A DNA stretch of 64,000 nucleotides from positions 186,001-250,000 of the forward strand of contig NW_015160869.1 in assembly GCF_001447785.1 (NCBI RefSeq). Reading direction: 5' to 3'. The stretch is from Gekko japonicus. Its lineage: Eukaryota. How positions within the stretch are numbered: the stretch's first letter is position 1; every line of letters starts with the position of its first letter. Below the pieces are notes generated by a model that worked only from the letters and a program-made list of their open reading frames with translations, was not told where the DNA came from and searched no databases. Shown one piece after another: positions 7,034-61,126 of the stretch. A program made the translations under genes and the position numbers.

Positions 7034-7228
7034 TTTAAGGTGTAAGCTTTCATGTGCAAACACACTTCCTCAGACAAATTGAAACAAAATGTCTTCAAGT
7101 TTTATATACAATAAGGGGGGGGGGGTTAAGCTTACACCTTAAATGACATGTTGTTGGTCTTAAAAATGCGATTGGACTCAAACTTTGTCCTGCTACTTCA
7201 GACCAATGTGGCGACCCATCTGAATCTA
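7034..7228. mobile_element. Penelope-like pseudo-LTR remnant in inverted arrangement, with hammerhead motif
   Basis: Inverted ttaaggtgtaagctt / aagcttacaccttaa. The tail ggtcttaaa...ggactcaaactttg...tcagaccaa...atctgaatcta is shared with copies at 17130-17380 and 38029-38158. Confidence 0.7.
7041..7076 (-). ncRNA. Minimal type-I hammerhead ribozyme motif (Penelope type)
   Basis: Minus strand: UGU-CUGAGGA-A-GUGUG(UUUG)CACAU-GAAA-GC-UU-ACA. This has both core boxes, stem II, a 3-bp stem I and a palindromic AAGCUU in place of stem III. Confidence 0.65.
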
Positions 7229-7499
7229 TTGTTATAATGGAGACATTGTTGTGCATGGCATGCTTAGTCACCCATCCCACTATCATCCCTGTTTGCAGGT
7301 GTTATGTATATTTTAATGCTCTCATTTAGGTATTGGGGAAGGGGATATACATCAACCTGGTTCTTCTGGGCATCTCTAGTTAAAACAAGCTCAATCCTCC
7401 CTGGCCCATGTGCATAAGCTGCCACTGAGACCCAAAGAAGAAAAGTGTTTGCATCCTGGATACTTTGCATGCTTTTCTTGGGAGGAGCCATGGCTTACT

Positions 7500-8017
7500 A
7501 ATTATTTTTTTTAGTTCCTTTGCACCCTGCCTTTCTCCCCAGTGGAGAGCCAAAGCAGCTTACATTGTTCTCCTCCCCTCCATTTTATCGTCACAAAAAC
7601 CTTGTTGTGGTAGTTTAAGCTGAGAGTGTGTGACTGGACTAAATTAGGGCTGCCAAGCCGCGGCAGGGGATCCGCACGTCTTCACAGGATCCCTGCTGTG
7701 GGGGACAGCGATACGCGTTGCACCGCCGTTGCCAGGATATGACATCCTGGCGACGGCGGTGCAATGCGTATTGCTGTCCCCCGCGGCAGGGATCCTGTGA
7801 AGACGTGCGGATCCCCCGCCACAGCTTGGCAGCCCTAGACTAAATTCAGTGGGGGTTCAATTCTAAAGACATTTTGCTGGGAGTAGACCCCATTGAACCT
7901 ACTTCTGAGTAGACCGGCTTAGGCTTGCTGCACCACTGAGTTTCCGTGGCATGGGGGGGGGGGGGTTTGGGCCAGATCCTAGTTTAGCAATCTAGCCACT
8001 ACACCACACTGGCTCTC
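7500..8017 (-). mobile_element. Old tRNA-derived SINE (Squam3/MIR-like) interrupted by MITE insertions
   Basis: Reverse complement begins gagagccagtgtggtgtagtgg (A box). The body resembles other copies in the window and is split at 7645-7935. Confidence 0.65.
7645..7837. mobile_element. Fully palindromic 193-bp hAT-type MITE
   Basis: TAGGGCTGCCAAG...CTTGGCAGCCCTA. The whole element is self-complementary, with a perfect 8-bp TSD GACTAAAT (7637-7644, 7838-7845). Confidence 0.92.
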
Positions 8018-9111
8018 ATTTATGTCAGTTTCAGTGGTGATAGTATCTTCTGCACAAAAGACCTCTGCTGGATTTAGGTATGTTTATAATTCCAAGAAGA
8101 AGAAAAATAATGGTTTGCTTTTAGGCGATATTTAAATAGCTCTTCTTTCACTTTAATATAAAAATAAATGGACGAGCCCATTGATCTATAAAGCTGTGCA
8201 ACATAGAGAAACATAAGCAAATAAATTGATTTTTTCCCCAGTCCCCAGTTACCTGAAGCCTTAAGTTATTGTGACAGCAATTTGCAGAGCTTCCCGTTGT
8301 ATGATAAGCTGCAGATATTGTGCAGCCAGTGATGGGAATCTACATGCTTGTCCTCAGCTGCATGTTGAGAACCACAATGAGGATCATAGATATTCTCCTA
8401 AACTATTGCTATAGCAACATTGTAAGAATTTCCAAGCTCTGTTTCCCTTGGGTTCACACCTGCAGTTCATTTCATTTATGCAACAAAATGCCTTCCTATA
8501 TAAAATCCAGTGTATTGGTGCAGGTAGAAGCCTGAGGATTTGTGTGTGCGTGTGTGAGCGCGCGCACACGCACGCGCAAAAGAGCAGGCTGTTTTAAAAA
8601 TCAGATTTTGTTTTTTGGCCAACCTGGTTTGAATCAACCAACAACTGCTTAGGGGAATATGTTTACCATGCTCCCAGTTTTCAGAAGTGGTTATGGAAAA
8701 TAGCCGCTTCATAATCAGGGCTCTGTGAATCTCCTTCATACACGAGTCCCCTGGATTCCTGGGAAGTTCCCACGTGACTCCAGTGCTGACAGTTCTCACG
8801 TGATACAGTGTCATTGCCGACTGTAAATTCTCACTGCTTATTCAGTATTTAAGTTTGAAAATATTTGAATGGTCTGTTTAATAAAGACATGCCCTGCCAG
8901 GTCACTGGTACTGCATAGGAAAAAACCAATAAACTCCAAATTCTGCCATGGTCTACCATGCCATGTCACCATCTACCAAGCTTACCTGTAACCTGGCATG
9001 TTGCATTCTTGACTTTCCTCTGACCCACCACATTCTTCTGTGGCTTCTTCACAAGCAATCTCCAGACTCAGTCTCTTGACTCCACATTTGCTTCTGTTCT
9101 AGCTGTTCTAA

Positions 9112-9360
9112 AGAGCCAATTTGGTGTAGTGGTCAAGAGCGGCGGTGTCTGATCTGGAGAACCATGTTTGATTCCCCACTCCTCCACATGAAGCCAGCTG
9201 GGTGACCTTGGGTCAGTCACAGCTCTCTCAGAGCTCTCTCAGCCACACCTACCTCACAGGGTGTCTATTGCAGGGAGAGGAAGGAAAGGTGATTGTAAGC
9301 CGCTCCAAGACTCCTTCGGGTAGTGAAGGGTAGAGTATAAAACCAACTCTTATTCTTCTT
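9112..9360 (+). mobile_element. Full-length tRNA-derived SINE (Squam3-like)
   Basis: A box tggtgtagtgg, B box gtttgattcc, body cctacctcacagggtg...gtaagccgct, (CTT)-type tail. Confidence 0.85.
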
Positions 9361-11717
9361 CACATCTGGCTAGCAGGATCTAGAAAACAACAGCTGACAC
9401 AACCATATAGGATCTGTCTGCTTAAAGGTACTGTTTTTTAATTAATTCAGATGGTCACAGACCAGGCTCTGGCACTGAAAACAGGTTCCTGGGCTAACTG
9501 TTGGTGAGCCCTGGCAAAAACATAGTAATTGAGAGACGGGGGGGGGGGGGTTTGGGGGGGGAAATGATTTCACTCCTGGCTGTCCAAGCCTGAAAAGGAA
9601 CTGTTGCCTGATGCTCTGTGCCTGCCCAAGAAGCCTCTCCTCCAGAGGTGTAGGAAGTCGTGTAAGCCCAAATTTTAGAGGTGACGTTCTGGCAGTATTA
9701 TCAGTAGCAGAATTTTCCTTAATTTGACCTTTCTCACTGGATGATACATATTGTGAAAGTAGAGGGTTTTTGTTGGGGAGGGGTTGGGTTTTTTTGTTGT
9801 ACTGAGATTTGAGATTGTTGTGTTTTTAGAGGCATAAGCCAGTTTGAATCTGCTATGCTGGAGAAAAGGGGGATAAAAGTATTATAAATACATTTAAATA
9901 AATAAATTGTCCATAACTGTGTCATGTGCTTCAACTTGTCCCTGTTAGCCAGAGACAGCTCCCAGTCTCAAATAAGTGTGCCAGATAGTTCAGTCTCTAT
10001 TTTGTCACTGAGAGAGATGCTGGGTGTGCTTTATAGAATAAATAAATAATGGATTTTCTTTCCTTCTACTCTGTTAGTGAATTGATCTTAAAAACAGCAA
10101 CAATACTGTGCTTCAGAAGCCTGTGCATGATAGGCTGTTGCACCAGTGAGCTGCACTTAAAGGTGCAGCAACTAGTTAAAAGTGGGCAAACCCATACATT
10201 CAGCAAGCCAAGATGAGAGTTCAGCCATGTGCAGTAGTTGAAGCAATATTTGCAGCCAAGGGAACCTGAGAGAAGAGAGATGTTAAATGACACGAGTGCC
10301 TCTGTTTTCATCTGTGAAATGTCAGAAGAATACTTGATGCCTTTGTTCCCCTGTGGATTTGCTTGGGTCAAACAAAACCTGTGAATGCTTCGAATTGGTA
10401 TCTGTCACTTCCTGTATCAAACCATTTCTCAGATTTTTTTTCCAGTTATGATCCTATTCAAGATAAATAATTTTTTTTTAAGTATCAGGTGATTTAGCTT
10501 TGAAATGGAACAGATTCACAGAAGCATCTTCCATTAGATACAATTTTCTATATTGAAAAAATAAAATAAAATTAAAATCTCTCTTTGTGGAATTGAAACT
10601 CTATCCTTTTTGATGGGAGAAAAGAGTAGGTTTCTTTGTTTTGTTTTGTTTGCTAAGTTGCCTTTGGATCCTGGCAGTACTGATTTTGAGAGCAAAAGAG
10701 AGAGAGAGAAATAGCAACACTTCATCTTCTAGGTTTAGTTTGTTAGCCTCCTAGCAAGTATGGAAACAGATTGGTGAGCACAAAATCCAGCACACAAACT
10801 GGTCTTTTGAGAAACATTTAAGAGCCAATTAAGATGCCTTCCAACATTTCACAGCTGAAATTAGGGGCACACTCTTGAACACCTGAATCTTTATACCAAG
10901 GAAATACAGCCCAACCCATGCCCACCACCAATACTCTTCCCTCCATTCAGCCCTAGACTGTTTTAAAATCCAAGAAGGCATTTGTTCATTAGGTGTGCAA
11001 GTAAAATCTCTTGTCTTTCACGTTGTTATCAGTTGTTAAAAATGAGATCTTGGTTGTGCAAGACAGGCATGTGGCATAAAGATGCAGCCAGCTCCACTCA
11101 GAAATTTAACTTCCAGACACTCCAGGGAAGAAACTGAACCCTAAAAAATGACAAGACAAGCAAATTGTCCTCACACAATTTTAACAAGGCATGTGTAAAA
11201 GGTAAAAATAGAGGGCAGTGATTTGCCAGGGACAGTGACCAGAAAATAAAGACTATTTCAGGTAAGGAGAGGCAGTTCTAATGTATGAAATTCTTTCTTT
11301 GCGGTATGTGTGTTGTCCTTGCCAAAATCAAATGCAACAGATTTCGAAGCAGGGTGTCAAATAAGCTTTCCAAATGGCTGATTTGAAATACAGCTTAAAA
11401 AATTCTTTAATCCAAGTGCATTTTTAACTGGGAGGGGGGCTGTTATGATGAAATAAAAGCTTGATTAAACTAACAAGTCCAAACACCTGTGTGCAAAACT
11501 TTCCAGTAGCAGAAGCCATTTCATCAAATATGTGTTTTACCAAAGCAGCAGGCCTAATGAAGCTCGCACTTCTAATTGGAAGGCAATTAAATGTGTTCTC
11601 CTTTTCAGGGCATGTATGTCTAACACCCATTAGCATTAATGGGAGTTACACGTGCAGAAAGAATGGGTACCAAACACTCGTTGCTTACAAATGCCTCCAA
11701 GTATTTCACATAAACTA

Positions 11718-11807
11718 ACAGGGCAGTCTTAAACAGAGTTGCATCCTTCTAAGTCCATTGAAGTCAATGGCTTCAGGAGGGTGTAACTCTATTTAGGATT
11801 GTGCTGT
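11718..11807. mobile_element. ~90-bp palindromic MITE (gcaatcctaa...ccattga...ttaggattgc family)
   Basis: Imperfect hairpin. Related copies at about 1300-1378, 7850-7932, 16435-16510, 29852-30340 (split by CR1), 53774-53860 and 63435-63520. Confidence 0.7.
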
Positions 11808-11996
11808 ATGCTCCATATTGCACTTCACTCCCCTATAATGCACCCACCTCACAACTCAGTGTAGACCTTCCTTCCACAGATACAAGCGGTAACTCTCAAT
11901 GAAGAAAACAGCCCTACAGAGGGGAAGTGAGAGAATGCATAAACCCACTGAAGGTCTCTGAAAGATTGCTACTAGTCCTAGGTGCAAGCATTGTAG

Positions 11997-12795
11997 GTAG
12001 GATTGCCACTGCCTGGTTGGGAAATGTCTACAGATTTGGGGATGGAGCCTAGGGAACATGAGGTTTGATGAGAGTAGGGTATAATGCCATAGAAGTCCCT
12101 CTCCAAAGCAGCCCTTTTCTCCAGGGGAACTGATCTCTGTTGTTTGAAGATCAGTTGTAATTCCAGAACCTCTCCAGCCCCCACCTGGAGGGTAGCAACC
12201 CCACCTAGAGTTGCCAAATCTAGCATGGGAAATTCCTGGTGATTTGGGAGCAGAGCCTGGGGGAGGAAAGGGAGTTCAGCAAGGATGTGATGCCATAGAG
12301 TCTGCTGCTGCCGCCACCCTCACCCCCCAAGAAGCTGCCATTTCCTCCAGGGGAAGTCATCTCTGTAGTCTGGAGATCACTGATAATTCTGGGCAGGGCT
12401 TTTTTTGTAGAAAAAGCCCAGCAGGAACTCATTAGCATATTAGGCCACACCCATGACAGCACAACTCATTAGCATATTAGGCCACACCCCCGTGTTACCA
12501 GAAGTGTGGTTATCCAGCCATACCCACCTTTTGCTTCTTATTCTGTTTACCTTGTTTCTTGTGAAAACCCAGGGCTTTTTTTGGAGCAGGAACTCCTTTG
12601 CATGTTAGGCCACACCCCTAATGTAGCCAGTCCTAATGAGTTTCTGCTGTTGGGTGTGGCCTATTATGCTAATTAGTTCCTGCTGGGTGTGGCCAACTTG
12701 GGAGCCAGCCAGAACTCCGTTCCTGTGTGTTCCTGCCCAAAAATAGCCCTGATTCTGGGAGAATTCCAGGCCCTGTCTGGAGGTTGGCAAACCTT
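11997..12795. mobile_element. Two adjacent TAGGGTTGCC-family MITEs, the second interrupted by a nested hAT MITE
   Basis: taggattgcc...ggtagcaaccc, then tagagttgcc...ggttggcaacc, with a shared body (gccatagag...ttctccaggggaactgatctctg). Confidence 0.75.
12394..12751. mobile_element. hAT-type MITE (CAGGGCTTTTT...AAAATAGCCCTG)
   Basis: Terminal inverted repeats, perfect 8-bp TSD ATTCTGGG, and repeated ctcattagcatattaggccacaccc subterminal motifs. Confidence 0.88.
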
Positions 12796-15321: not shown

Positions 15322-15500
15322 TAGGGATGCCAGCTCCAAGTTGGGAAATACCTGCAGATTTTGGGGGTGGAGCCTAAGGAGGGTGGGGTTTGGGGAGAGA
15401 ATGGACTTCAATGGGGTATAATTAGGGTTGCCAGATCCCTCCTGGCAACCAGCGGGAAATGGGGGGAGGGACTTACCAGGAGCGGGAGGGAGGCCCAGGC
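15322..15500. mobile_element. TAGGGTTGCC-family MITE fragments (two left ends)
   Basis: tagggatgccagctccaagttgggaaat and tagggttgccagatcc. Confidence 0.6.
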
Positions 15501-15710: not shown

Positions 15711-16325
15711 TATATTTATTTATTACAGTTTTCTTGTGCATTACATCATGCATTCATGGTAATTCAAACAGTTTCAACTATCAGAGTCAAATAAATCATA
15801 CATTATTATCTTTTATCCACTTATAAAACATTTCCCATCTACTATGAAATACGTCCATATCTTAATTCTCTAAGATTGTGGTCAGTTTGTCTATTTCAAC
15901 TACTTCCTGAACTTTGGTTATCAATTCATTTCGTGATGGTATCCTTTCAAGTTTCCAATTTTTGGCAAATATAATCCGTGCTGCAGTAATAATAAATCCC
16001 ATAGAATATTTTTGTTCATTTTTCAACTTATCTGGCAATATGTTTAACAAAAATATTTCTGGTCTAAAAGGCAGTTCTACTTTGTACATATCTGCTAGTA
16101 TCTTACGTACCCTCTGCCAGAATCGCTGAGACTTTTGGCACCTCCACCACATGTGATAGAAGGTGCCTACATTGTTTTTACATTTCCAGCAATTTTTAGA
16201 TACATTCGGGTAACATTTAGCTATTTTATCCGGGGACCAGTGCCACCGGTGATACATTTTAAATATATTTCCCTTATATGGAATTGTGCGTAGCTGTTTT
16301 GCAGCAATCCGTTTTAATATGGTTT
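15711..16325 (-). mobile_element. L1/Tx1-clade LINE 3' fragment (ORF2 C-terminal cysteine-rich domain)
   Basis: ORF 15862-16404: FKMYHRWHWSP...NCWKCKNNVGTFYHMWWRC, a C-x2-C...H-x4-C motif of L1-type ORF2, followed by AATAAA on the minus strand. Confidence 0.85.
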
Positions 16326-16685
16326 TAAGTGTTCTAATTATTTGTGATTTTTTTTTTACAATTTTGTAACCACATTGGAAGTCATGTGCTACAAATGTAG
16401 ACAACCTGTAAATCTTTTAAATAAACAAAACTGACAATGCCATTCTCAGCAGACTTACACCCTACTAAGCCCCCTCATTTCAGTGGACTTGGAAGAGTAG
16501 AGCTCTGCTGATAGGGTAGGAACTTGCTTATGAAAATCTCTTTTAAAGTGATAGTCTATGTTATCCTTACCATTGTATCCCATTGCACTTAAAGAGATAA
16601 GATGGCTCCCTTGCCATGGGGATAGGCTATTCATATATTGAAAATCTTTTTCAACAGAAGTCTTTCATTTATTGTGCATGCATTG

Positions 16686-17099: not shown

Positions 17100-17380
17100 G
17101 GGAGCCTGAAAGCTTATACCTTGAAAATCATAGAACAAACTTGGAGTCCAGTGGCACCTTTAAGACCAACACAATTTAATTCTGGGTATAAACTGTGCTG
17201 AGAATTAAACTTTGTTGGCCTTAAAGGTGCCACTGGACTCAAACTTTGTTCTGTTGCTTCAGACCAACCCAGCCACCCACCTGAATCTACCCTGAAAATC
17301 TTGTTGATCTCTTGAGATTCTACTGGACTTGAATCTCGCTCATGTACTGCAGACCAACATGGCTGCCCTCTTGAAACTTT
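17100..17380. mobile_element. Cluster of Penelope-like pseudo-LTR remnants (one inverted pair)
   Basis: gaaagcttatacc hammerhead remnant; inverted gagtccagtggcacctttaag / cttaaaggtgccactggactc; two cagaccaac tails. Confidence 0.7.
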
Positions 17381-17496: not shown

Positions 17497-17719
17497 TGTG
17501 TGTGTGCGCATGCTTGCGAGCCTGGAAGTCATAGTGACTTCTGGTGATCCCTAGTGGGGCTAGGAAACTTCAGAAGAGGTGGCTTTGATATTACCTGCCT
17601 CTGTGTCCCAGCCCTGGTATTCCTTGGATGTTGCCCTTCCAAGTACTTGCCAGGGTCAGCCCTGCTTCGCTTCTGAGATCTGATGAAACTGGGCTTGCCT
17701 GGGCTATCCAGGTCAGAGC
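17497..17719 (-). mobile_element. 5S rRNA-derived SINE
   Basis: Reverse complement contains the 5S internal control region: cagatctcagaagcgaagcagggctgaccctggcaagtacttggaagg. Confidence 0.85.
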
Positions 17720-17949: not shown

Positions 17950-18144
17950 AATGCTGTCAAGTTGTAGCTGACTTATGGTGACCCCATAGGGTTTTCAAGG
18001 CAAGAGGTGGTTTACAATTGCCTACCTCTGCACAATAACCCTGGATGTCCTTGGTGGTCTCTCATCAGTACTAGCCGGGGTTGACCCCGCTTAGCTTCTG
18101 AGATCTGATGAGATCAGGCTAGCCTGGCCTATCCAGCTCAGAGC
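17950..18144 (-). mobile_element. 5S rRNA-derived SINE
   Basis: 5S-like head (cttagcttctgagatctgatgagatcaggc) with ccatagggttttcaaggcaagag tail. Confidence 0.8.
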
Positions 18145-18589
18145 GGGGTCTCTCTGCAGCAACCAGGAAAGTCGGAGATGCATTTTGAACCAAGAAAAAA
18201 CTTCTAGACAGTCTTCAAAGGCAGCTCTACATAGAGCAAACTAAAGTAATCTAACCTGGATATGATCAGAGTATGGATAGTTGTATGTCTCAATCTTGTG
18301 AAACGTATATGGAAAGCAGAGGCTGAGAGATTGCAGGTTTCTATGGAGACTGCAGTTTGCCCTGGTTGTCTCACTGAGTTTATGGTTGTCAGTAATTTGA
18401 ATGAACTTGCATGGTCATTTTGTAGAAGGAACTGAAGTTCATTCCATGTGAGAGTACGAAGTTAAATGACATCATTAGTGGAGCTTATAATGTTGGTAGC
18501 TAATGGGGAGAAGACACAGACACTGATGAAACTGGATCCATTTTTAGTTGTTGCTCATTGTGGTCAGTGACAGGAGAAAAGTAGACATG

Positions 18590-23434: not shown

Positions 23435-23649
23435 TTGGTGGAAAGTGCTATCAGGTCATAGATGACTGCTGACAACCCTGTGGGGTTTTCAAGGCAAGAG
23501 CTTTCAGAGGTGGTTTGCCATTGCCTGCTTCTGCATAGCAACCCTGGTATTCCTTGGAAGTCTCCCATCCAAATACTAACCGGGGCTGACTCTACTTAGC
23601 TTCTGAGATCTGAAGAGATCAGGCTAGCCTGGGCTATCCAGGTCAGGGC
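23435..23649 (-). mobile_element. 5S rRNA-derived SINE
   Basis: tctcccatccaaatactaacc...cttagcttctgagatc...ctatccaggtcagggc. Confidence 0.85.
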
Positions 23650-33133: not shown

Positions 33134-33541
33134 CAGGGGTCATTTAGTAGAAAAAGAGGCGCAGGAGCTCATTAGCATAACTCATTAGCATAACTTATTT
33201 GCATATGCCACACACCCTGACATCACTGGAAGTGTGTCAGAAGGCAACACCCACCGCTCAGGCTCCACTGGACTGTTTTGGATTGCTAGCTATTGGGGGG
33301 GGGGGGACATGCAGACCTGTCCTCGCAGAGGAGGGAGAGCTTGCACCTGAATAAAACATGGTCTTAAAGGTTCCACTGGACTGTTTGGGGCCGGGGGGAG
33401 CTCTGCAACTTACCTGGCTACTTCTTGCTCTGACTGAGGGCTGCTGGGAGCAGGGGGTGGGGGTTGTTGCCTGTGCCAGCCCCCTGAGCTCTTTACTGCC
33501 GGAGCTCCGCTCCTGTGCGCTCCTGCAGGAAATGACCCCTG
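33134..33541. mobile_element. hAT-type MITE (CAGGGGTCATTT...AAATGACCCCTG)
   Basis: 12-bp perfect terminal inverted repeat and perfect 8-bp TSD GTAATAAG. Confidence 0.92.
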
Positions 33542-35072: not shown

Positions 35073-35315
35073 TTTTTTCCCCTTTTTGTTGAGTATTGTG
35101 TGTGTGCGCATGCATGCCCGGAAGTCATGGTTGACTTCTAGCAACCCCTAGTGAGGCTTGAACGTTTCAGAGAGGTGGCTTGCTATTGACTTGCCTCTGT
35201 GTCTCGGCCCTGGTATTACTTGGAGGTCTCCCATCCAAGTACTTGCCAGGGTCGGCCCTGCTTAGCTTCTGGGATCTGACGAGATCGGGCTTATCTGGGC
35301 TATCCAGGTCAGGGC
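35073..35315 (-). mobile_element. Young 5S rRNA-derived SINE with 16-bp TSD
   Basis: 5S head gcccgatctcgtcagatcccagaagctaagcagggccgaccctggcaagtacttggatgggagacc; TSD tgagttaatgcatctc at 35057-35072 and 35316-35331. Confidence 0.92.
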
Positions 35316-38028: not shown

Positions 38029-38158
38029 GCATCTGAGAAAGTGTGCGTGCACATGAAAGCTCATACCTTGAGTAAACCTTTGTTTGTCTTAAAGGTGCCC
38101 CTGGATTAAAAATTTGTTCTACTGCTTCAGACCAACATGGCTGCCCACCTGGTTCTAT
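38029..38158 (+). mobile_element. Penelope-like pseudo-LTR remnant with degenerate hammerhead motif
   Basis: gcat-CTGAGAA-A-GTGTGC(GT)GCACAT-GAAA-GCTC-atac, then the family tail cttaaaggtgcc.ctgga...cagaccaacatggctgccc. Confidence 0.72.
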
Positions 38159-41059: not shown

Positions 41060-41624
41060 GCTATAGGGAGAACTGTCAATAACAAACAGTACAGCACACA
41101 GCAAAAAATAGCAAGGGACAACAAGAAACAACTGTGAGCTGAATTACAGTGAAAGTAAATCCAAAAGGAGACTTCAACAAAGTGAAATGCACATGTAATC
41201 AGAAATGAATCTATACATATAATCCATCATTGGAAAATACAGAAGTTCACAGGATCCATAGAAGGAAAAAAACAAAGTCCAGAGTAGATATCCAACACTT
41301 TTCCTAGGTAGTATGCAGTGTTTCAGACTTCTGGTCCTTCCTCAGGAACAAAGAACAACATTAGGAAGTCTCATTCCAATTTCTTTACAGGACAATACTA
41401 TTCAGTTTCTTTATGGGCCAGGTCTCCTAAGCTTTAATATGCACCTCTCATGGTTGCTTCTATGTAAACAGGACCAAACATGCCTCCAAATGATGGATTA
41501 TATGTATAGATTCATTTCTGATTACATGTGCATTTCACTTTGTTGAAGTCTCCTTTTGGATTTACTTTTGCGGGTAATTCAGCTCACAGTTATTTCTTGT
41601 TGTCCCTTGCTATAGGGAGAACTG
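41060..41624. mobile_element. Inverted-repeat element (Penelope-like) with ~127-bp arms and a hammerhead core in the spacer
   Basis: Arms 41108-41234 and 41485-41613; flanking 16-bp direct repeat gctatagggagaactg; minus-strand CTGAGGA-A-GGAC(cagaa)GTCT-GAAA at 41321-41345. Confidence 0.75.
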
Positions 41625-45171: not shown

Positions 45172-46529
45172 TAAGACTGTTTTCCTGGATGTACTGGTTT
45201 TCTGCATGCAGGGAAGCCTTCCCCCCCCCCCAAACAATGATCCCCTGCTTTCAGTTGTAGTAATACAGATCAAGAAGGTCTGCCACCGAATGTTACTAAT
45301 AGCGTGGCTCAGGGGTGGAGGAGGACCACCTGGGAGACTCATATTGATTTAATGGCCTTGAGAAAATGGGAGTAATATCATGTCCAGGTGAAATTGTGTC
45401 TGGATAATGTGGTCCACCAGAGGACTTTCTAGCTTCCAACTGCTCTCAAATTGAAAGCCCACAGAGTATACATCACAAAATAATTACTTTCATGCCTTGT
45501 TGAAAATGCAGTATTTTATTTTTTAGTCTTGTCTTGTGAATAATTTCCTGGCATTTCCCACTACTTGGTTTATGCAAAAGCATGAATATGAACCAAGCAG
45601 CTCTTTTTTACTTTTTTTTTTTTTTTAAGAAACGGGGTCTTTGCTAATTTCAATTCTCAAACACCACAGGAGTCTGCAATTCCAATTTTCTTTTCACAGT
45701 ATTAATGAAGACTGGACATTGGCAATAGTCGCAGTTTTTCCTTACTCTTGAAATTTAAGAGCCATATTGAGGCGCTGCCAGGAATTATAATAACTGTCTA
45801 ATGCACAATGTGGAACTGTGGCCAATTGTGATTGTTCCAGACAAGTTATTTCATAGGTGTGGTAACAAAAGGAATATAAAAATCAATCTCATCTAGTTTT
45901 ATATATGCTACAATTCAGAAAGAGAGGTGTGTGTGTGCGTGTGCATTTAAGCTTCTTAATGAGGACAAGCACAATATACCCACCTCACTGATTGCTTTGA
46001 GAGCACCAGTGCTAGGCAGGGTGGCTGGTCAATTCCTGTCAGTAGAGTGAAGAAATACGGTTTTATGATCTTCTACATGCGCCCTGTCAAACCATCTATA
46101 TTGCCATAACGGCAGCTTCCAGATTTGCAGGTGGCTCTTCATCTTTAAGGATTTCCAGCTTCTCAGTTTTATGGTCTTAAATCTAGATGAGCTGAGTGGT
46201 TATTGGCTTTTCATCTCCCATTTCCTGGGCAATGAAATAAGGCACTTCGACTATTCTGGCTGTTTTTCAAGGTGTAAAAGGTACAATAATGGAGACTTCT
46301 GAAAAGAATGTTTTCAGAGTCAAGAGATATACACATACATACATTTCTTCAATATCTCATGAACTGCTATTGGAAACTTGATATTAGCAACAAGCACATT
46401 GAAGACATTCATGATCCTGAGGAAGTTTTCAGTGAAACATACATATGATGGAAGGCTTTGTTTGAAGAGCAGGACATATATGTCATTGAAATAATAAATG
46501 TTTGCAGTGGAAAGCTTTACTATGATCCT

Positions 46530-46712: not shown

Positions 46713-47586
46713 CTAGGAACTATGGGAAATATCCTAACAGATGGTTCTTAGCACTCTTACAAACTTACAACAGGCAGCCTGTAAAAAAATTGACAAGAAT
46801 AACTGGATATTGCTGGGAAAGTTATTCCTTTTAGTACAGTGATTAATAAAACAAAAAGGCATGCTTTAGCCTCAAACCCCTCATCCCCATCCTCCGCACC
46901 TCACGTTACAAACAGCTACTCTTAGAACACCAGGAACATTTTCAGTTAATTAAGTGGTTGTGTCTTCTTTAGACAGATGGAGTAAGTGAGATAATTGTGA
47001 AAAGATGCCTAAAATGAAAGAATGCCAGAAGGCTTGGTTTTTTTAAAAAAAAACTGACTTTGCTTAAAATAAGATTCTTTGGTTTCATTTCTTAGGCCTC
47101 CATATTCAAAGGAACATTTCCCCATAAAAGGGAGCTGAAAGATGCCATTTAGCAGACATTAATAGCAGAGTTAATTGACAGTGTTTGCCTCAGATGCTGG
47201 TGTTCAAAGGGAGGACAACTTTTAGCCCATCAGGTAGTGACAGAATTTATTCAGTAGATTCCATTCTTTCTTAGGTAGAAATTAATTTTCAAAATCACAT
47301 TTAGTCAGATAACTCTCTCTCAGTTTCACTCACGTGGATACACTCAAGAGTCTTTATGTAGTCAGAGTGAATTGTCTTACAAAACAATTGATGACACATC
47401 CAACTCAGATGAATTTCCACCACAAGTACAATGGAGAGGAGGGAGAAAATCTCTGTTGTCATTTCTAACTGATTTAAAATGGACCCCTATTGCAAGTTTG
47501 TGAAGCTCAAGGAAATTGAAAAGCTCTACAGCTTTGAACTGAAAACCTGAGCATCCAGTGTAGGCTTATAATCAAACTATACATGA

Positions 47587-47820
47587 ATTGACTCATTTGA
47601 AATGTGGTGTTGGATGAGAATTTTACGGGTATCGTGGATCACCAAAACGACAAATAAGTGGGTTCTAGATCAAATCAAACCTAAAATCTCCCTAGAAACT
47701 GAAATGACTATCAAGTAAGGCAATCAGACTTTGGCCACATTATAAGAAGACAGGAGACACTGGAAAAGACAATAATGCTAGGGAAAAATTGAAGGCAGCA
47801 GGAAAAGAGGAAGGTCCAAC
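47587..47820 (+). mobile_element. RTE-clade LINE fragment
   Basis: IDSFEMWCWMRILRVSW...NKWVLDQIKP...FGHIIRRQETLEKTIMLGK. Confidence 0.85.
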
Positions 47821-48256: not shown

Positions 48257-50608
48257 GTATGAAGAACTCTGACATCTTTATAAAGAAAAATTGCAGAAAT
48301 TTTTTGGATGTGAAGAATAGCATTGCGGTATGAGCCTTGGATTTGAAAAAGGCTATGCAACATGCTGCTGATCCATGTGCTTATGTTATGCCCCAATTTG
48401 AAATCCCACTGATTAGCTATTTGGTGCCGAAAGGGGAATATGAAGGAACTAGGTCTACCCTGCCACAAAGACACAGAAAACCGGAATTACTCATAGGCGT
48501 AATGGGCAGAATGTTAACCTTTGTGAAAGGTTTCAGTGCATGCAGAGCCAGCTGTTGGATCTGAGAAAGAAGCCCATCTGTGTCAGTGTTTACCCATCCA
48601 GCTAAGTTTCTACCTGACAGAGCTGCCTCCTGTGTGCATAATACCCGGAGCTGTATCGGGGTATTTATGTACAGAGACACATTCTAAGGGCAAAGCATAT
48701 AGAGATACATTTTGCTCTGAATGTTTCCAGAGGTAATTTGGGATGTCTTGACTTTTTAATTACTGAAGGAAATGTCAGCCAATCCAGGTTTGGCAATTTC
48801 AATTCCTAACTGGAAAATGAAACAATATAAGCTGAAACTTGAGCTCTTCATTTCAGATTTTGCACCGAGAAAACTGACAGGCATTGTCTGATTAACTGAT
48901 TTTATTGTAATAATTTTGTGAGATACTCAATAATAAATAATAAATTCAGTATTTCACAGTGTCTTGTGCATGCAGCCTTTCTCCCCCTTTAATTAGATTG
49001 GCTCTTACACTCTGTTTGTGGCGGGGGGGGGGGTCTTCCTTTGTGTTGTTATCATCTGCAACATATGTCATCAGACACCCATCCAAAAAGCCCTGTACAC
49101 AATTAAATGTAACTGTTGGACTCATTTGACATACTGTACTTCTTATATAGGTCAACTGAAAACTGGAAATGACAACCAGCTTAAAGGGAAGTGCAGGGGT
49201 AAATATGGGGAACCTTAGAAGTAATTTTCAGTAAAGTTAATAACATTTCTCTGGGAGGCCTCACACCTCTCTAACTTGCCTTTGAATTTTCCTTAATACT
49301 ATGCCATTAAAGGTATCTGAATCTGAATTTTCCTTAAAGTGAAATCTAGATTTAGAAAATGCTGTTCAGGTAAAATATCTGTAGGAATTGCAAGGAAAGA
49401 AAAAAAAAGGATTCCTGAAAGAGTATTATTTTATGAACCTCTCTTTTGAGGTCAAACTTGTAGGGCAGGCTTGATGGCCTTAAAGAAGTACAGAAGAGTC
49501 TTTCTGTACTCTGACTCATGCTGGTAGGTCATGAGTCTCCCAATAGATCTCAGTGATGTTACATTTTTATGCACCATTGTCTTTTTTCATTCCTTTGTTT
49601 TTCTTTTTGGTGTGTGAATATGAATTTTATTTATATGCATGAATTCAAAAAGTATTTGAACCTTTTGCAAAAATTTAACAATAATTTAAAAAATCAGGCA
49701 ACAGGCAGGCTCTCAACAACTAGTGGCATGTCTATATGGGCTTTTCTTCAAGGGTTGGACACAATGATCTACTGCATCTGATCCCTGCAGTCTATACAAC
49801 TGTGGATCTTCAACTCCTACTAACCCTGTATCTGTCTGTATAGCAGATGGAGGCAATAATTAGATCCAAAGAGTAATGCACATTTGTGAGAGAGCCACAT
49901 GTGCAAGCATGTAAAGGAGACACTAAAGACACAAGCACTTTGTTTTAAAAGCAGCTTACCCTTTTCACTGTGGAAACTGCTAGGGCAAAAACAACTAGTA
50001 AAAACACATCTGTACATGTAGGTCACTTCTATGTGTTCATGCTGTTGGATCTTCACCATTATGTGGGACAGCTGCTCTCACTAACCCACATTTAGAAAAG
50101 GTACATTGTACAAACTGCTGGAAATAACTATTTCATAATGTATAATGGCTTCACAAGTTCACATAGAAAACTAGTACATCGAGAAGTCCATTTATGTGCT
50201 AGATTTCCAAAAAACAAGACGTTTTTGACATTTAGGAGGACTCATGTATATATTTCCCCCCCATCTGCATTATAAAGTGGTGCAGTCCCTGAAGGACTCT
50301 GCTGTGGCCTTTTCTGAATGAACAGATTAGTCCTGGGTTGCTAGCACAACTTCAAAATACTGCAGGAGCTAAGGAGTGAACTGTGCAATTTAATATTGGG
50401 GGGGGGATTTGTCCTATACTTCTGGTTTCATTCCAGATTACCAGACTGGGATCAAGGAATGTCCACCCATGGAGACATGCCCAGTGGCACATGGTTAATG
50501 TGACCTTGCCTGATCTATTAAATGGGTTCTGATGATATACAGACATAGAATGCACAGATGGTTTCTACTATGCACTGTATAAATGTTTCTTTCATCATTT
50601 ACCTACAG

Positions 50609-50913
50609 CAAGTCCCACCAAGGCTGGAGGGAGAGGATTTGCAAATTCGGACGAGGTGGTCCGGGAATCCAGCAGCACCACTGGCATGGTGGTTGGGATT
50701 GTGGCGGCAGCTGCTCTGTGCATTCTCATCCTCCTCTATGCCATGTACAAGTACAGAAACCGGGATGAAGGTTCCTACCATGTTGACGAGAGTCGAAACT
50801 ACATCAGTAACTCAGCACAGTCCAACGGGGCTGTGATTAAGGAAAAGCAACCAAACAGCTCTAAAAGTTCCAGCAAAAATAAGAAAAACAAGGATAAGGA
50901 ATACTATGTCTGA
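50609..50913 (+). CDS. NRXN1: Neurexin-1 terminal coding exon (juxtamembrane, transmembrane helix, cytoplasmic tail with PDZ-binding motif)
   Basis: Acceptor tttcatcatttacctacag|CA. Translates (A)[100 protein letters not shown]. The HVDESRNY segment and the GGL donor pattern fit NRXN1 better than NRXN2/3. Confidence 0.97.
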
Positions 50914-55353: not shown

Positions 55354-55715
55354 AGCATTGCCCCACCTATTCCCCCTTCTAGAGACACGCCCTACTGATG
55401 CTCCACTGTGTACAACATACAGAAAATACAACCACAAACCACTGCACAGTCTCAGATTTTCCTTTCATAAAGCCCTCCTGATCTATATATTCCCTGTTTT
55501 ATTTCATCCTAAGAAAGGATATGTTCCCACACAGCATTGCCCCACCTATTCCCCCTTCTAGAGACACGCCCTACTGATGCTCCACTGTGTACAACATACA
55601 GAAAATACAACCACAAACCACTGCACAGTCTCAGATTTTCCTTTCATAAAGCCCTCCTGATCTATATATTCCCTGTTTTATTTCATCCTAAGAAAGGATA
55701 TGTTCCCACACAGCA
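55354..55715. repeat. 179-bp tandem duplication with no differences seen
   Basis: Units start at 55354 and 55533; AGCA microhomology at all three junction positions. Confidence 0.95.
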
Positions 55716-56033: not shown

Positions 56034-56842
56034 TAGGGATGGGCACAAACTGAGGAAATTAGTTCTGTTTGTGGTTTTTGACGTGCCTGGTTTGCAGACT
56101 GTGAACCACCACAAACTTTTAGAGGCCAAATGAATGGGTGAGATTTGTGGCCCAGTACAATGGCCATCCCTGCATGCTACAGACACCAAACTCACAGGGG
56201 AATTCCAGCTGATTCTCCTCTACCTGCCCTCCAGGTTTGGTGATGAGTGGCTTTACAGTGTCTGAGTAACAGTCCCCCAAAGAAGGTGCCCCCAGGAAAG
56301 TGTTTTCTGGGGAAATGACCATTATTTCCCCAGAAGGCACTTTCCTGGGGGCACCTCCTTTGGGGGGGGGGTAACTCAGACCCCGTAAATCCAATCCTCG
56401 CCAAACCTAGAGGGCAGGCAGAGGAGAGTCAGCCACAGATTTCCTGCGAGTCTGATTTCTGCAGCTTGCACAGGATCCATTCTACAGATTCCTGAACCTG
56501 TGCCTGTCAAAATGATGGGTCATTTTGACAGGCGCAGGTTCAGGAGTGTGTAAAACAGATCCTGTGCGAGCTAGAGACATCAAAGTCACAGGGGACCTCC
56601 CCTGGATGCTCTTCTACATGCACTGCTAAGCCCCCCCCCCCAATAGCTTTGATGTTTAGATTGAACAGAGACTGTCTGGAAATGTATCCATTCATGAACC
56701 AGCACAAACCTCCATGAACAGCTTGAAAGTTCATGGGAAGTTTGCGCTGCTTTACCTGCCACAAACTTCACTTCTCAAACCATGAACCAGCCAAAATTCA
56801 TCACGAACCTTTAGTTCATAAGCCACTTAGTGCATATCCCTA
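56034..56842. mobile_element. hAT-type non-autonomous element (TAGGGATGGGCAC...GTGCATATCCCTA)
   Basis: Terminal inverted repeats, 8-bp TSD ACCCCAGT/ACCACAGT (7/8 match), internal hairpins. Confidence 0.82.
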
Positions 56843-57882
56843 ACCACAGTCCCTAATTAATCCAAGCAAGTTTGTCAAATCACTTTTGCTTAAAGCCAGC
56901 TGTACGTGGCTATAGTGATTCTTATACCAGCAGTAGTTTGGGAACGTCCTACTGCAGCCATGGAAATTGCTATCAGCTGTAGCCATGTACACTAGCCATG
57001 TAGTCATGTACAGATCACACTAAACGTTCTACCATGCAATTTTGTTGCTGCAACTTAAACAAGTAAATTCAGAACCCAAATACAAAAAGTGTTCAGTCTT
57101 GGAATTTGACCAGCCTACAGTAGGAAGGGATACTGTAATGTTACAAGGGTATTTTGGGTGGATTATCAGAGTGAGCTGAATCAGAGGAGGTGATCTTTAA
57201 GGTAAGTTGGGCCTAAGCCTTTATAGATTACAAGGTGAGACCTGCAAGACTTGTGGGGGAGGGAATCCAATCCTTTTTGTCCCCACTACCACTACCAGCC
57301 AACCTGACCAACAGCCCACCAGCATGCAGAACTCTTGCCAATGGCTGCCTGGCTTTCATGGTGGTGGGGTGGCAGGTGGACAGCTCCAGGTCCTTCGCCT
57401 ACCCACAGTGCCACTGCCTGCCTGGCTCATTTGGTAGTGGTTCCATCTCTCACTTCTACTTCCTGCCTGGCACATGTGACAGCAGCAGCAGCTCTTTCTC
57501 TCTCTCAACCAGTTTAGGCAGTGGTTCCTGCTTCACCCACCCCCCAGCCTGCCAGAAGCAGATGTTCCAGGAACTTTATCCCACCTCCATTATGGGTGGC
57601 TTTCACATTCTTCTACACCCTCCTTGGTCCCTCAGATCTGCAGAAGAATACCTTGGAATCCAGGCAAAACTGTTGTGGTTACCTAGTTACCTAACAACAG
57701 TCAACGAGGACATCTGTTTCTTAAAGCTATAAGCACCTTTTATATTTTGGGGGGATTAACCCCCCTCCCCCAATGCATTTATTTTTAGATTTCCATTTTT
57801 TCTGCAAACTAGTCTACAGATTTAAGTATCCTCAGAGTTGGCCAAGTTGAGAATTGGGTATATTAATAACTAGTATTACCCA

Positions 57883-58173
57883 TACGGTTCCCAAGTACTT
57901 ACCGCAATCTGGCAGAGGACACATGCTCCTCGGCCGGAACATTCCTCCCTGTAACACACCATGCCGTCACCAGGAAGTGACGCTGGGTGACGCTCTGACA
58001 ATGGGGCTGAAAACTCGATTATACCATCAAGTTTCCAGCCCCATTGCTAGAGCGTCACCCGGCGTCAATTCCTGGCGACAGCATGGTGCCGCGTGTCTGT
58101 TGTCCACACGGGAATGGTCCTGGGAAGACTTATGTGTCCCCTGCCAAATCATGGTAAGTACTTGGTAAGCCTG
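57883..58173. mobile_element. TAGGGTTGCC-family palindromic MITE
   Basis: ccaagtacttacc...ggtaagtacttgg inverted ends; TSD ATTACCCA/ATTACCTG (6/8 match). Confidence 0.75.
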
Positions 58174-58654
58174 ATTACCTGGAAGAAAACAGCAGCCAAT
58201 TTGGATGCTAAAAAAATGGTTACGTGTTCCCATAATAGGACTATTAGTCACTTCAGCAGATTGCTTATAAGAAAGATGCTGAAAAGCACAAAAACTCTGC
58301 TGATTTTCTATCCATTCCACTATGCTATTTGCATTACTAATGTTTTTTTAAGACCCCCGAAGGGGATTTTTTAAAAATAATACTACATAAACTACAAAGA
58401 AAAGAAGGGAAGGGGAGCTACAACTAAGGAGAAAGAAAAGTAACCCACACTAAACTAAAAACCCAAGAGTAGGAGATCATTACCCTGTTAGACTGCAGTT
58501 GGTAAGGCAAAAAAAAAAAAACTTAATAAACAATATACTTTGTGAGATCCTGTCTTTCTAAGCTTATGTGTTAGTTTATTACTTGTTATGAGAAGATTTC
58601 CAGAGCATCTCCTCCAGCTCTCTTCGTAAGGGCAATTTTCAGAGTCCTTCTGCT

Positions 58655-59630
58655 TTTTTTTTTGTGTTGTTCAGTCACACAGTCGAGTCCGACTCCCGTC
58701 TTCTTTGACCTTCAATCTTTCCCAGCATCAGGGTCTTTTCCAGTGAGTGCTCCCTTCTCATTTGGTGGCCAAAGTATTTGAGCTTCAGTTTCATTATCTG
58801 GCCTTCCAGGGAACAGTCAGGGTTGATTTCTTTGAGGATTGACTGATTTGTTCTTCTTGCAGTCCAAGGGACTCTCAAGAGTCTCCTCCAGCACCATAGT
58901 TCAAAAGAATCTATTCTTCGGCGCTCGGCCTTCCTTATAGTCCAACTCTCACAGCCATACATGACTACTGGGAATACCATTGCTTTGACCATGCGGACTT
59001 TTGTTGGCAGGGTGATGTCTCTACTTTTTATCATGCTGTTTAGGTTCGCCATCACTTTCCTCCCAAGGAAATCTTTTAATTTCATGGCTGCTGTCACAGT
59101 CTGCGGTGATCTGGGATCCCAGGAACGTGAAGTCTGTCACTACTTCCACGACTTCCCCTTCTATTTGCCAAGGAGTGATGGGGCCGGATGCCATGATCTT
59201 AGTTTTTTTGATGTTGAGCTTCAAGCCCACTTTTGCGCTCTCCTCTTTTACCCTGAGCAAGAGGCTCTTTAGGTCCTCTTCACTTTCTGCCATTAGAGTG
59301 GTATCGTCTGCATATCTGAGGTTGTTGATCTTTTCCCCAGCAATCTTAATTCCCGCTTGTGATTCATCCAGGCCAGCATTTCGCATGATGTACTCTGCAT
59401 ATATATTAAATAAGCAAGGCGACAATATACATCCTTGTCGTACTCCTTTTCCTATGCTGAACCAATCAGTTGTTCCATATCCGGTTCTAACTGTCGCTTC
59501 TTGGCCCTTATACAGGTTTCTCAAGAGACATGTGAGGTGGTCTGGTACTCCCATCTCTTTAAGGACCTGCCATAGTTTGTTGTGATCCACACAGTCAAAG
59601 GCTTTAGCATAGTCAATGAAGCAGAAGTAG
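58655..59630 (-). mobile_element. RTE-BovB LINE fragment (reverse transcriptase to 3' end; frameshifted, internally deleted)
   Basis: YFCFIDYAKAFDCVDHNKLW...GVRQGCILSPCLFNIY...NNLRYADDTTL, then KVRMVKAMVFPVVMYGCESWT...; 3' tail gactgaacaacac. Confidence 0.95.
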
Positions 59631-60450
59631 CTATGCTTATGCAAATGCATCCGAGAGGCGTCCCTCTCATCAGGATTCCAATCGCTCAAAAGGTTTCAGG
59701 GGGGGATTTACGCTTCTGTTTACGGTTCGCTCATTTTAATTCACAGTTCATTGTTTCTTAACCACACTCGTAATAGCTCCTTCACCAGATCTTCTGCACT
59801 TGACTGGGTTGGCACATCTTGTGCCTCGCTAAGAGGATGCAGACAGCAGGGAGGACCGTCAGGGCAGAGGGCAGCCTCAATTTCCCTGCAAATAGCAGGA
59901 AAAGAGGCTCACCCTCAAAAGCCCTATGGCCTCGGGGGCCTCCCTGACCCCCCGTGGAGGTGCCGATCCAGCGGCACCCCTCCCCTCTGCTGCTGTGCAG
60001 AGCGCCCTCCCCGAGCCTCAGGAAAGGCATCCGCCATCGTTGAACCGTAGACCCCGCGTCTGCATTACTAATGTTAAACAGATCTACTATACCAATAGTT
60101 ACAGATTCTGTAAAGAACAACGTATTTCAGAAAAATATCAGAGCCTTACAAGTAATTTAAACCTTGTGAGTCTGTGGCTGGCAGAGAGGTTTGACTGCAA
60201 CTATCTTTAGCCGGCTACTTGGATGGAGGAGGAGGGGGTTTAAACCCTGTCCCCTTCCACGGCTTGCCAGCGAGCCCCATGGCTGCGGGGCTCCCGGGCA
60301 AGCCAATGCTTAGATGGGCTGCTGGGAGCGGGGGTGGGGCTTGGTCATGTGCCCGCCCCCGGGGCTTCTCACTCCTGGAGCCCTGCTCCTGTGTGCTCCG
60401 GCTCCAACCGACCCCTGCAAACCAGAGACCAATTCAGTTCCATCATCTGG

Positions 60451-61126
60451 TGTTTGTGAGATCGAATGTGTGAAAATCATGGTAACAGTATTAAAGCAAG
60501 TCCAAGAAATGATCCCGAAAACGGAAACCTGTATGAGTACTGCGCTACAATAATAGTTTAAGTATCTAAAGTGACAGTGTAATAATCCAAAGTGCAAATT
60601 AATAAAATGTTAACGATGACCTTCGGAATGTTCTACCGTTTCGATAATAATCTTCTTCGGAACAAAGATGAAGAATATGTAACGCCTCTAGTCAATGTCT
60701 CAACTGGTACATATCAATAAGTCTCACTGAAGTGTCATGACATCATTTTATAAGGTTCCAAATGATTCTTAGAAGGCACTTTACAGCATTTTGCCCTTCT
60801 AAGAATCATTTGGAACCTTATACAATGATGTCATGACACTTCAGTGAGACTTATTGATATGTACCAGTTATTGACTAGAGGCGTTGCATATTCTTCATCT
60901 TCGTTGGGAAGAAGATTATTATCGAAACGGTAGAACATTCCAGAGATCATCGTTAACATCTTATCATTTGCTTATTTTTGTACTTACCTTGTGAAATGTT
61001 GATTGTGTGTATATTTGCACTCTGGATGACTACACTGTCACTTTAAATACTTAAACTATTTTTGTAGCACAGTACTCATACAGGTTTCCATTTTCTGGAT
61101 CATTTCTTGGACTTGTTTGTGAGATC
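60451..61126. mobile_element. ~620-bp foldback element (Penelope-like) with hammerhead-like motifs in both arms
   Basis: Arms 60497-60776 and 60795-61115 around an ~18-nt loop; 13-bp flanking direct repeat tgtttgtgagatc; motif gaaga-a-gat(tatt)atc-gaaac in each arm. Confidence 0.75.

Follow-up and report, generated by a model that had tools for sequence, protein, structure and literature searches.

Hammerhead-bearing, probably Penelope-like insertions in Gekko japonicus and a predicted extended hammerhead in two of their families

Hammerhead motifs and the insertions that carry them

We analysed a 64,000-nucleotide stretch of the Gekko japonicus contig NW_015160869.1, hereafter the window, for hammerhead ribozyme motifs and the repeats around them. 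An exact core followed by a bulged A, stem II and GAAA was found at 7073-7048 and 41345-41321 on the minus strand and at 46417-46437 on the plus strand. These three matches compare with a mean of 0.31 (maximum 2) in 100 dinucleotide shuffles, and an independent descriptor of our own also gave three, with 0.3 expected from 40 shuffles. Since the exact-core count lies above the shuffle expectation, the hammerhead motifs are real. An Rfam scan with E-values up to 5 returned 31 matches, none of them to a hammerhead family.

The first-pass annotation had listed motifs or remnants at six places, most of them within inverted repeats. The CUGANGA/GAAA core is exact at 7, 41 and 46 kb, where bulged A and stem II are also present, and is decayed or variant in most copies. 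The motifs at 38 and 60 kb are present but altered in the core, and near 17108 a GAAAGC half remains while the rest of the hammerhead is absent. An inverted, 5'-truncated copy accompanies the elements at 7, 17, 41 and 60 kb but not those at 38 and 46 kb. Other palindromes, lacking a hammerhead, also occur in the window. The sequences fall into at least three unrelated families, as had been proposed: family A, family B at 41 kb and family D at 60 kb.

Family A is represented by pieces at 7, 17, 33 and 38 kb. At 7034..7074 (minus strand, core 7073-7067) lies an inverted piece with a minimal hammerhead, which has a stem II of 5 bp, a helix I of 3 bp and an AGCU palindrome as helix III. The sense-oriented partner in this head-to-head insertion starts at the helix III palindrome and spans 7128..7229 (plus strand). 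The inverted piece is 87% identical over 38 nt to 38032-38069, part of a solo pLTR piece at 38029..38158 (plus strand) that has no inverted arm and carries a decayed minimal hammerhead, with G8 replaced by A in the core at 38033(+). In both copies helix III is minimal and palindromic, the cut site lies directly 3' of GAAA plus two bases, and the two differ by paired changes in the hammerhead helices. An older family-A-like copy with only the 3' half of the hammerhead, at 17107..17129 (plus strand), resumes at 17293-17380 and is split by a palindrome (17130-17292) inserted into it. This palindromic stub of family A (17122..17300, plus strand) is bounded by an 8-nt direct repeat (17122-29 and 17293-300). 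Its arms, 17130-17186 and 17198-17252, are identical at 48 of 55 positions and are followed by a 40-nt tail at 17253-17292; the palindrome contains no hammerhead. A 24-nt fragment at 33359..33382 (plus strand) matches family A in sequence. A family A 20-mer had no match in viral contigs, and seven matches in metagenome contigs were set aside as chance, extending to at most 28 nt.

The family B insertion (41060..41624, minus strand) lies between copies of a 16-nt direct repeat (41060-75 and 41609-24), five nucleotides of which overlap the arm end. It has a 32-nt tail (41076-41107) and arms at 41108-41231 and 41489-41613 that agree at 120 of 124 positions. The palindromic insertion of family D (60451..61126) has a 13-nt direct repeat (60451-63 and 61114-26), a 30-nt tail (60464-60493) and arms at 60494-60776 and 60795-61118, with 260 of 278 aligned bases identical and an 18-nt loop between them. 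For the 46-nt gap that separates the arms at 60 kb, an intron was considered and rejected by eye, as short repeats flank the gap. As first described, the 41 and 60 kb elements share one architecture, running from direct repeat, tail and arm to inverted arm and direct repeat, and their arms are unrelated (76 of 1,000 shuffles score equally well).

The motif at 46417..46437 (plus strand) has an exact core and a weak stem II with two G-U pairs. It lacks a helix I partner, an inverted arm and a second copy, and outside the motif it matches none of the other elements. It was equalled in 14,826 of 20,000 shuffles. About 0.3 sites of this kind are expected by chance, and we regard it as unsupported and possibly a chance match. 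It can therefore not be counted as a separate design.

Predicted helix III of families B and D

The hammerheads at 41 and 60 kb have an unusual feature that the first reading missed, an extended helix III. Both are non-minimal type I motifs with a GUU site and an identical helix III spacing of 5 bp plus 17 nt. In family B (41289..41350, minus strand), the predicted fold has a helix I of 5 bp (two of them G-U), an exact core, the bulged A, a stem II of 4 bp and a 5-bp helix III, with cleavage predicted after GUU, between 41294 and 41293. Its 17-nt loop contains a 6-nt palindrome, which arises in 2,974 of 20,000 shuffles of that loop. By itself the loop palindrome is weak evidence, and the dimers predicted through it lack a control.

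Both arms of family D carry the motif. In the left arm (60608..60664, minus strand), helix I has 4 bp, stem II 2-3 bp and helix III 5 bp with the 17-nt loop, and the predicted cut falls between 60612 and 60611. Its core, at 60660(-), reads CCGAAGA, with a base other than U at position 4. The right arm (60903..60957, plus strand) has a 3-bp helix I and the core GGGAAGA at 60906(+), in which C3 is also changed to G. The first-pass annotation had aligned a shared context of the 41 and 60 kb motifs. That alignment was one base out of register: the 60 kb core keeps all seven positions, and position 4 holds a substitution, not a deletion. A deleted U4 was rejected because the helix I register fits a 7-nt core.

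The extended geometry occurs at three sites (two loci) in the window, against a mean of 0.18 and a maximum of 2 in 100 shuffles. The 41 kb motif was attained in 18 of 20,000 shuffles, and the 5 bp plus 17 nt spacing at 60 kb in 12 of 20,000. Paired, compensatory changes separate helices I and III of family B from those of family D. Helix III is part of the minimum-energy fold in all three copies (B and both arms of D), while the full hammerhead fold lies 5-8 kcal/mol above that minimum in each; their folding z-scores are 0.04-0.44. In terms of the predicted best fold, then, families B and D depart from the minimal hammerheads of metazoan PLEs in that helix III has 5 bp and a 17-nt loop. Three viral matches to the extended pattern were dropped, as none had the helices.

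Copies of the 60 kb family and the search for a coding partner

Reads were used to follow family D, the one of families A, B and D that the read-based tests cover. By read depth it has tens of copies. DNA-read depth was 27-46 over the body and 68-81 over 60611-60670, a peak that sits exactly on the ribozyme, as it also does in a second species. The tail had a depth of 14.5, about half that of the body, and toward the palindrome centre depth dropped to 17 and then 8, a roughly four-fold fall that is partly an edge effect. No strand-switch joint was listed at the centre. Depth across the loop was 5-8, so a few other copies have it; two contigs carry an insertion at 60788 in the central loop, and another departs from the alignment at 60770 and continues with 293 nt of other sequence. 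In the second organism, contig depth was 691-2254 over 60611-60670 and 0 over 60471-60590. Its depth ends near 60466, which suggests an empty target site at 60 kb.

Position 4 is G in 51 of 70 family D reads, and stem II has 2 bp in 49 of 77. Position 2.4 of helix I is changed in 26 of 55 reads, with the partner change in none among those listed. In one cDNA run, the RNA/DNA depth ratio of the family was 0.11-0.22, compared to 0.13 for a neighbouring ordinary repeat. RNA read ends did not pile up at family D in the one RNA run, which is no gauge of ribozyme activity.

We next looked for a coding partner among 150 ORFs of the window, namely 142 stop-to-stop ORFs of at least 75 aa and eight of the 158 shorter ones, chosen near the elements. 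No Pfam match to GIY-YIG was found. An RT detected at 59024-59695 (E = 2e-28) is separated from the 60 kb element by 770 bp. Among its 18 listed matches to solved structures, R2 and LINE-1 ORF2p rank best and no telomerase RT occurs; it is therefore a separate LINE. The first-pass statement that no RT or GIY-YIG ORF adjoins the elements thus stands for GIY-YIG, whereas an RT does lie nearby but belongs to another element. None of the scanned ORFs carries the telomerase-like RT and GIY-YIG expected of a parent element. An upstream frame at 41 kb had looked by eye like a GIY-YIG C-terminus and was dropped, as the searches gave no support: phmmer over 1.84 billion proteins returned two matches, both unrelated repetitive proteins, a word-index protein search returned none, and Pfam found no family in any of six frames.

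Origin of the insertions and relation to known elements

The labels Penelope-like, hammerhead-bearing and retroelement are supported. The inserts at 17, 41 and 60 kb have direct repeats of 8, 16 and 13 nt and tails of 40, 32 and 30 nt on one arm; direct repeats of at least 13 nt occurred in 5 of 5,000 random flank pairs. In our main reading, to which we give a probability of about 0.84, the elements are insertions, truncated at the 5' end and dead on arrival, from at least three unrelated PLE families, of which only the hammerhead-bearing 3' end (the pseudo-LTR, or pLTR) was copied, and in two of these families the minimal form is replaced by a helix III predicted to have 5 bp and a 17-nt loop. 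An inverted 5'-truncated copy, a tail of 30-40 bp, a TSD of 8-10 bp and palindromic junctions have been described for PLE insertions (PMC8557442, PMC3846280). Solo minimal hammerheads and pairs on opposite strands 100-700 bp apart have been ascribed to truncated PLEs (PMC4209133).

The mechanism we propose is drawn from PAc Poseidon of Anolis carolinensis (Frangieh et al. 2024, PMC11167929). That study reports cleavage of two strands, links the tail to a pair of RT start sites and finds that the template is mainly uncleaved RNA. The RT/GIY-YIG protein of an autonomous element, encoded elsewhere in the genome, would nick the target strands 8-16 nt apart. One nick would prime reverse transcription from the distal start site and give the arm with the tail, the other would prime 30-40 nt further in and give the arm without it, and the two cDNAs, both ended early, would then be linked head to head. 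The hammerhead copy would have left its own template RNA uncut; the sequence runs without a break through all of the predicted cut sites. Ribozyme activity would belong to the RNA of the complete element, probably with the help of protein or as a dimer. The copies in the window carry decay changes and, judged from their sequence, are likely inactive passengers.

The first-pass annotation had instead proposed an undescribed non-autonomous, retrozyme-like system. Families B and D would then be retrozyme-like or SINE-like derivatives of PLEs, amplified as fixed non-coding units by a PLE protein in trans. A PLE ORF remnant was detected in neither, family D is multi-copy with a central loop covered by some reads and contigs, and PLE-derived non-LTR retrozymes, including monomers, are reported in four of five reptiles (bioRxiv 10.64898/2026.07.22.740005). 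However, we consider this unlikely. Head-to-tail hammerhead arrays were looked for in the window and none was found, as none of its 11 tandem-array rows overlaps a motif. The centre-ward fall in depth, the lack of tandem units and of RNA end pile-ups disfavour retrozymes, and the missing strand-switch joint, the contig departing at 60770 and RNA/DNA ratios near that of an ordinary repeat point the same way. Solo hammerheads and inverted pLTR stubs are instead a described by-product of PLE insertion.

Even less probable is an origin of the hammerhead ends in some retroelement class outside the canonical PLEs whose insertions are inverted in a similar way. The extended helix III and the G4 core match none of the 56 metazoan PLE motifs in Fig. 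S3 of PMC4209133, and no coding partner was found among the scanned ORFs, but the bulged A after the core, G10.1, the U-rich upstream sequence, the one-sided tail and the inverted copy are PLE hallmarks. We give almost no credence to the palindromes being DNA-transposon MITEs with hammerhead letters arising by chance. Long inverted arms with direct repeats outside them, and palindromes without a hammerhead elsewhere in the window, would fit such elements, and chance is plausible for 46417 taken alone. This reading is contradicted by direct repeats of three lengths and by tails of 30-40 nt that leave the arms non-terminal on one side; motif counts also exceed those of shuffles, and in two organisms the motif itself is where conservation is highest.

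Truncated insertions of EN+ PLEs (Arkhipova et al. 2013, PMC3846280; Craig et al. 2021, PMC8557442) are the closest known counterparts, with the same inverted 5'-truncated copy, one-sided 30-40 nt tail, short variable TSD, palindromic junction and insertion into older copies. They differ in their 8-10 bp repeats, compared to up to 13-16 nt here, or 8-11 nt once the 5 nt common to the arm end are discounted; no ORF was recovered from the window inserts. Animal non-LTR retrozymes (PMC7229834; bioRxiv 10.64898/2026.07.22.740005) are similarly non-coding, PLE-related and low in GC with type I hammerheads, but they are defined by head-to-tail tandem units and circular RNAs, while the window copies are single or head to head, form no tandem array and give no hint of a discrete RNA. 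PAc Poseidon also has a pLTR hammerhead, likened here by description and not by sequence; it consists of stems I and II only, and the ORF starts inside it (PMC11167929).

Family A shares the bulged A, G10.1, the AGCU palindrome and a short helix I with metazoan PLE minimal hammerheads (Cervera and De la Pena 2014, PMC4209133), and a turtle example in the supplement has a close layout in a by-eye comparison. Families B and D share the bulge, G10.1 and the U-rich upstream sequence with that group but depart from it in helix III, which has 5 bp and a 17-nt loop; D departs also in G4 and a stem II of 2-3 bp. In the account given there, large helices III are reported for fungal and protist PLEs only. 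Since the minimal descriptor of that study requires GAAA and two further bases to lead straight into the cut site, it could not have found B and D. The extended variant was not found in the literature searched, although the set of small PLE hammerhead variants of Lunse et al., file S2 of PMC8557442 and Repbase/Dfam may contain it. U4C is reported to be tolerated as a natural variant (PMC3088659); a natural U4G was not found in the literature searched.

The insertions themselves are likely ordinary PLE debris, and the new part is the extended hammerhead of B and D. Tentatively, and with the balance of probability against it, the type I hammerhead of one reptile PLE lineage may be a subtype that has gone undescribed and is catalytically active, with a stable helix III of 5 bp and a 17-nt loop containing a 6-nt palindrome. 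It would cut as a monomer or pair two RNAs through the loop, would tolerate G at the nearly invariant U4 in one branch conserved in at least two species, and would have escaped notice because published descriptors call for a minimal helix III. The hammerheads of animal PLEs have been described as minimal, weak and dependent on dimers or protein, and the extended variant bears on the part that the hammerhead plays in PLE transposition. If true, a natural G4 core and a genuine helix III in a vertebrate family would provide a construct suited to assays of the monomer, and current ribozyme descriptors would be overlooking whole PLE families.

Inserts with head-to-head arms

Comparing the window with itself, we found that the pieces at 7, 17, 33 and 38 kb fall into one family, A, whose three longer pieces were 72-87% identical over 38-102 nt. 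The 41, 46 and 60 kb regions had no window matches beyond their own arms. The 41 kb element (family B, 41060..41624) and the 60 kb element (family D, 60451..61126) aligned no better than shuffles (76/1000 overall, and 265 and 282/1000 up- and downstream of the motif). A copy of a very high-copy repeat (33438-33541) adjoins a family A fragment.

The 17, 41 and 60 kb inserts shared a common layout, with outer direct repeats enclosing a pair of head-to-head arms and, beyond just one of these arms, a tail. The direct repeat and tail measured 8 and 40 nt at 17 kb, where the host is an older A-like copy, 16 and 32 nt at 41 kb, and 13 and 30 nt at 60 kb. Arm-to-arm identity was 48/55, 120/124 and 260/278, respectively. 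Direct repeats of at least 13 nt arose by chance in 5/5000 random flank pairs. This layout matches insertions of Penelope-like elements (PLEs) as described in excerpts of published work: PMC8557442 reports an inverted 5'-truncated copy plus a 30-40 bp tail, and the PMC3846280 cases have TSDs of 8-10 bp, a 31-bp tail and palindromic junctions. PMC4209133, in the part concerned, interpreted lone motifs and pairs on opposite strands spaced 100-700 bp, reptile motifs included, as probable truncated PLEs. We therefore consider it very probable (about 0.84) that the inserts are ordinary PLE stubs, that is, 5'-truncated, hammerhead-bearing pLTR insertions. The undescribed system of non-autonomous, solo pseudo-LTR or retrozyme-like families proposed in the first-pass annotation was not supported, since the inserts carry published PLE insertion structure.

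About 46 nt (60970-61012) in the right-hand arm of the 60 kb palindrome are absent from the left one; they have short repeats on either side and include, on the minus strand, a consensus-like splice donor. The family A pieces at 7128 and 17107 start immediately 3' of stem II, within a few bases of the predicted cut site on its upstream side, which may reflect RT stalling at stem II. Hammerhead-free palindromes were found elsewhere in the window (1745-1802, 7645-7837, 56411-56624 and 57957-58088), and the one at 7645-7837 has a 9-nt direct repeat on either side (7637/7838).

Hammerhead motifs of the three families

The core plus GAAA pattern had three matches in the window (7073-, 41345- and 46417+) versus 0.31 expected from shuffles, and at least three were reached in 0/100 shuffles. 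With one core mismatch permitted, nine sites were found, including 38033 and 60660, versus a shuffle mean of 4.1 (maximum 8, n = 40 shuffles). Detection of the 60906 core required two mismatches, and the 17108 site was the 3' half of the motif only. These match counts and the mismatched or half motifs show that the hammerhead sites of the first-pass annotation are real, most of them in decayed form. At 7, 38 and 41 kb the copies carry T in place of the expected C11.1, as would be expected of CpG decay. The reverse strand of 5S rRNA-derived SINE-like copies, of which four decayed ones lie at 17603-17715, 18030-18145, 23533-23638 and 35199-35311 (also 20294 and 40741), gave several matches to CTGAnGA, none of them a hammerhead.

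The isolated match at 46417..46437 (+) has an exact core, two G-U pairs in stem II and no helix I, and its fold was equalled by 14826/20000 shuffles. Neither a second copy nor an inverted arm was found in the window self-comparison. Its best match, the 7 kb piece, was marginal (40/1000 shuffles as good, with the motif included in the alignment), and we assign the site to none of the families.

The family A motif is a minimal hammerhead with an AGCU palindrome, a cut site directly after it and a helix I of 2-3 bp; one paired change distinguishes the 7 and 38 kb copies. Compared by eye, its layout agrees with that of the turtle motif in PMC4209133 Fig. S3, and it belongs to an already known minimal kind.

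For the 41 kb copy and both 60 kb arms, we enumerated all candidate cut sites up to 45 nt from GAAA. All three shared the same best solution, a 5-bp helix III with a 17-nt loop and a GUU site, followed by a helix I of 5 bp at 41 kb and of 4 and 3 bp in the 60 kb arms. Shuffles of the downstream bases reached the family B geometry in 18/20000 cases and that of the family D arms in 359 and 402/20000 (12 and 18 with the same spacing). A relaxed-core scan of the whole window returned exactly these three sites (two loci), whereas 100 shuffles gave 0.18 on average and never more than 2. The B and D helices differ in sequence with pairing kept. Helix III was present in 3/3 minimum-energy folds of these copies and helix I in 0/3, and the full hammerhead fold lay 5-8 kcal/mol above the minimum.

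None of the 56 motifs in PMC4209133 Fig. S3 had a comparable helix III or a G at position 4, and the minimal descriptor of that paper is incapable of matching the extended form. Natural hammerheads with dimer-forming palindromic stems III, with 2-bp stems II or with U4C are described in part of PMC3088659; given these precedents, the B/D hammerhead extends known themes. The literature searched contained no hammerhead with an extended helix III and a G4 branch; Lunse et al., PMC8557442 file S2, the supplements of the retrozyme preprint (bioRxiv 10.64898/2026.07.22.740005) and repeat databases may contain such forms. Two viral contigs, L008 and L009 (3001-3057), share a near-identical hammerhead-core-like motif that misfits the extended-helix-III geometry.

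Family D in sequencing reads

Reads from 4/24 listed runs were aligned at 80% likeness to 60211-60810, a stretch that among the three families covers D. In the DNA run (1934 Mb), the flank bin 60431-50 had depth 0, the tail 14.5 and the body 27-46. Depth peaked at 68-81 over 60611-60670, coinciding with the predicted ribozyme span (60608-60664). It was 27-33 just upstream of the motif, then 21, 17, 8 and 5 toward and across the palindrome loop, the last bins being subject to edge loss. Assuming a genome of about 2 Gb, this depth corresponds to tens of family D arms. In a second organism, another species matching family D, contig depth was 691-2254 over 60611-60670, 0 over 60471-60590 and below 90 in adjacent and upstream bins. 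With depth by far the highest over its span, the predicted ribozyme is the best-kept part of family D. Flank depth in the second organism (run X7, 60431-60470) stops at about 60466, where a left-to-right-flank contig would cease aligning; this depth profile suggests an empty orthologous site. The repeat at 60311-60417, of the same very high-copy kind as 33438-33541 and covered about 13000-fold in 1.9 Gb of reads, crowded the family D read tables.

Core position 4 was G in 51/70 DNA reads, 10/12 RNA reads, and 4462/5154 and 393/637 of contig depth in two organisms, with the right arm concordant. Two changes, present in 66/68 reads and likewise in the second organism, create a 6-nt loop palindrome. 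Stem II was cut to 2 bp in 49/77 reads, and the fourth pair of helix I was broken in 26/55, a change for which the rows listed (67, 366 and 1698 further ones in the tables) contain no compensating partner. Both the 2-bp stem II and the broken pair would count against family D ribozyme activity. Family D reads had no strand-switch joint at the palindrome centre among those listed, and no position with many molecule starts or ends. RNA/DNA depth ratios were 0.11-0.22, similar to the 0.13 of the neighbouring repeat.

Coding content and a model of insertion

No PLE coding partner was found by Pfam in 150 window ORFs, which gave only LINE RT, exon and weak sub-cut-off matches, and searches for PLE coding remnants were negative. 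The LINE-type RT fragment at 59024-59695 (-) (RVT_1, E 2e-28; related piece at 47585-47795) has R2 and LINE-1 ORF2p as its nearest solved structures, and we take it to be of RTE/BovB type. The 60 kb element, at a distance of 770 bp, is unrelated to this fragment. The Syndecan-domain exon at 50536-50910 (+, Pfam) presumably encodes a neurexin-like C-terminus, and the 7-46 kb elements may lie within introns of this gene. Overall, the window has the look of nuclear DNA from a reptile, presumably a squamate. A 184-aa frame at 15865-16416 (-) had no Pfam match at E 0.01; we assume that it resembles an L1-type ORF2 C-terminus. An exact 179-nt tandem duplication (55354-55711, 100% identical) is either a recent event or an assembly artefact.

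A lizard PLE protein, according to part of PMC11167929, cleaves both strands, has two RT start sites whose spacing equals the tail length, and uses mostly uncleaved RNA as template. The observed basis of our model is the insert layout, the unbroken sequence across the predicted cut sites and, in family D, the multiple copies and the peak in conservation. An autonomous PLE protein would make two staggered nicks and priming would occur at two RT start sites, followed by early termination and head-to-head joining of the products. In this model the parent RNA is where the ribozyme would act, and the window copies would carry it as a passenger.
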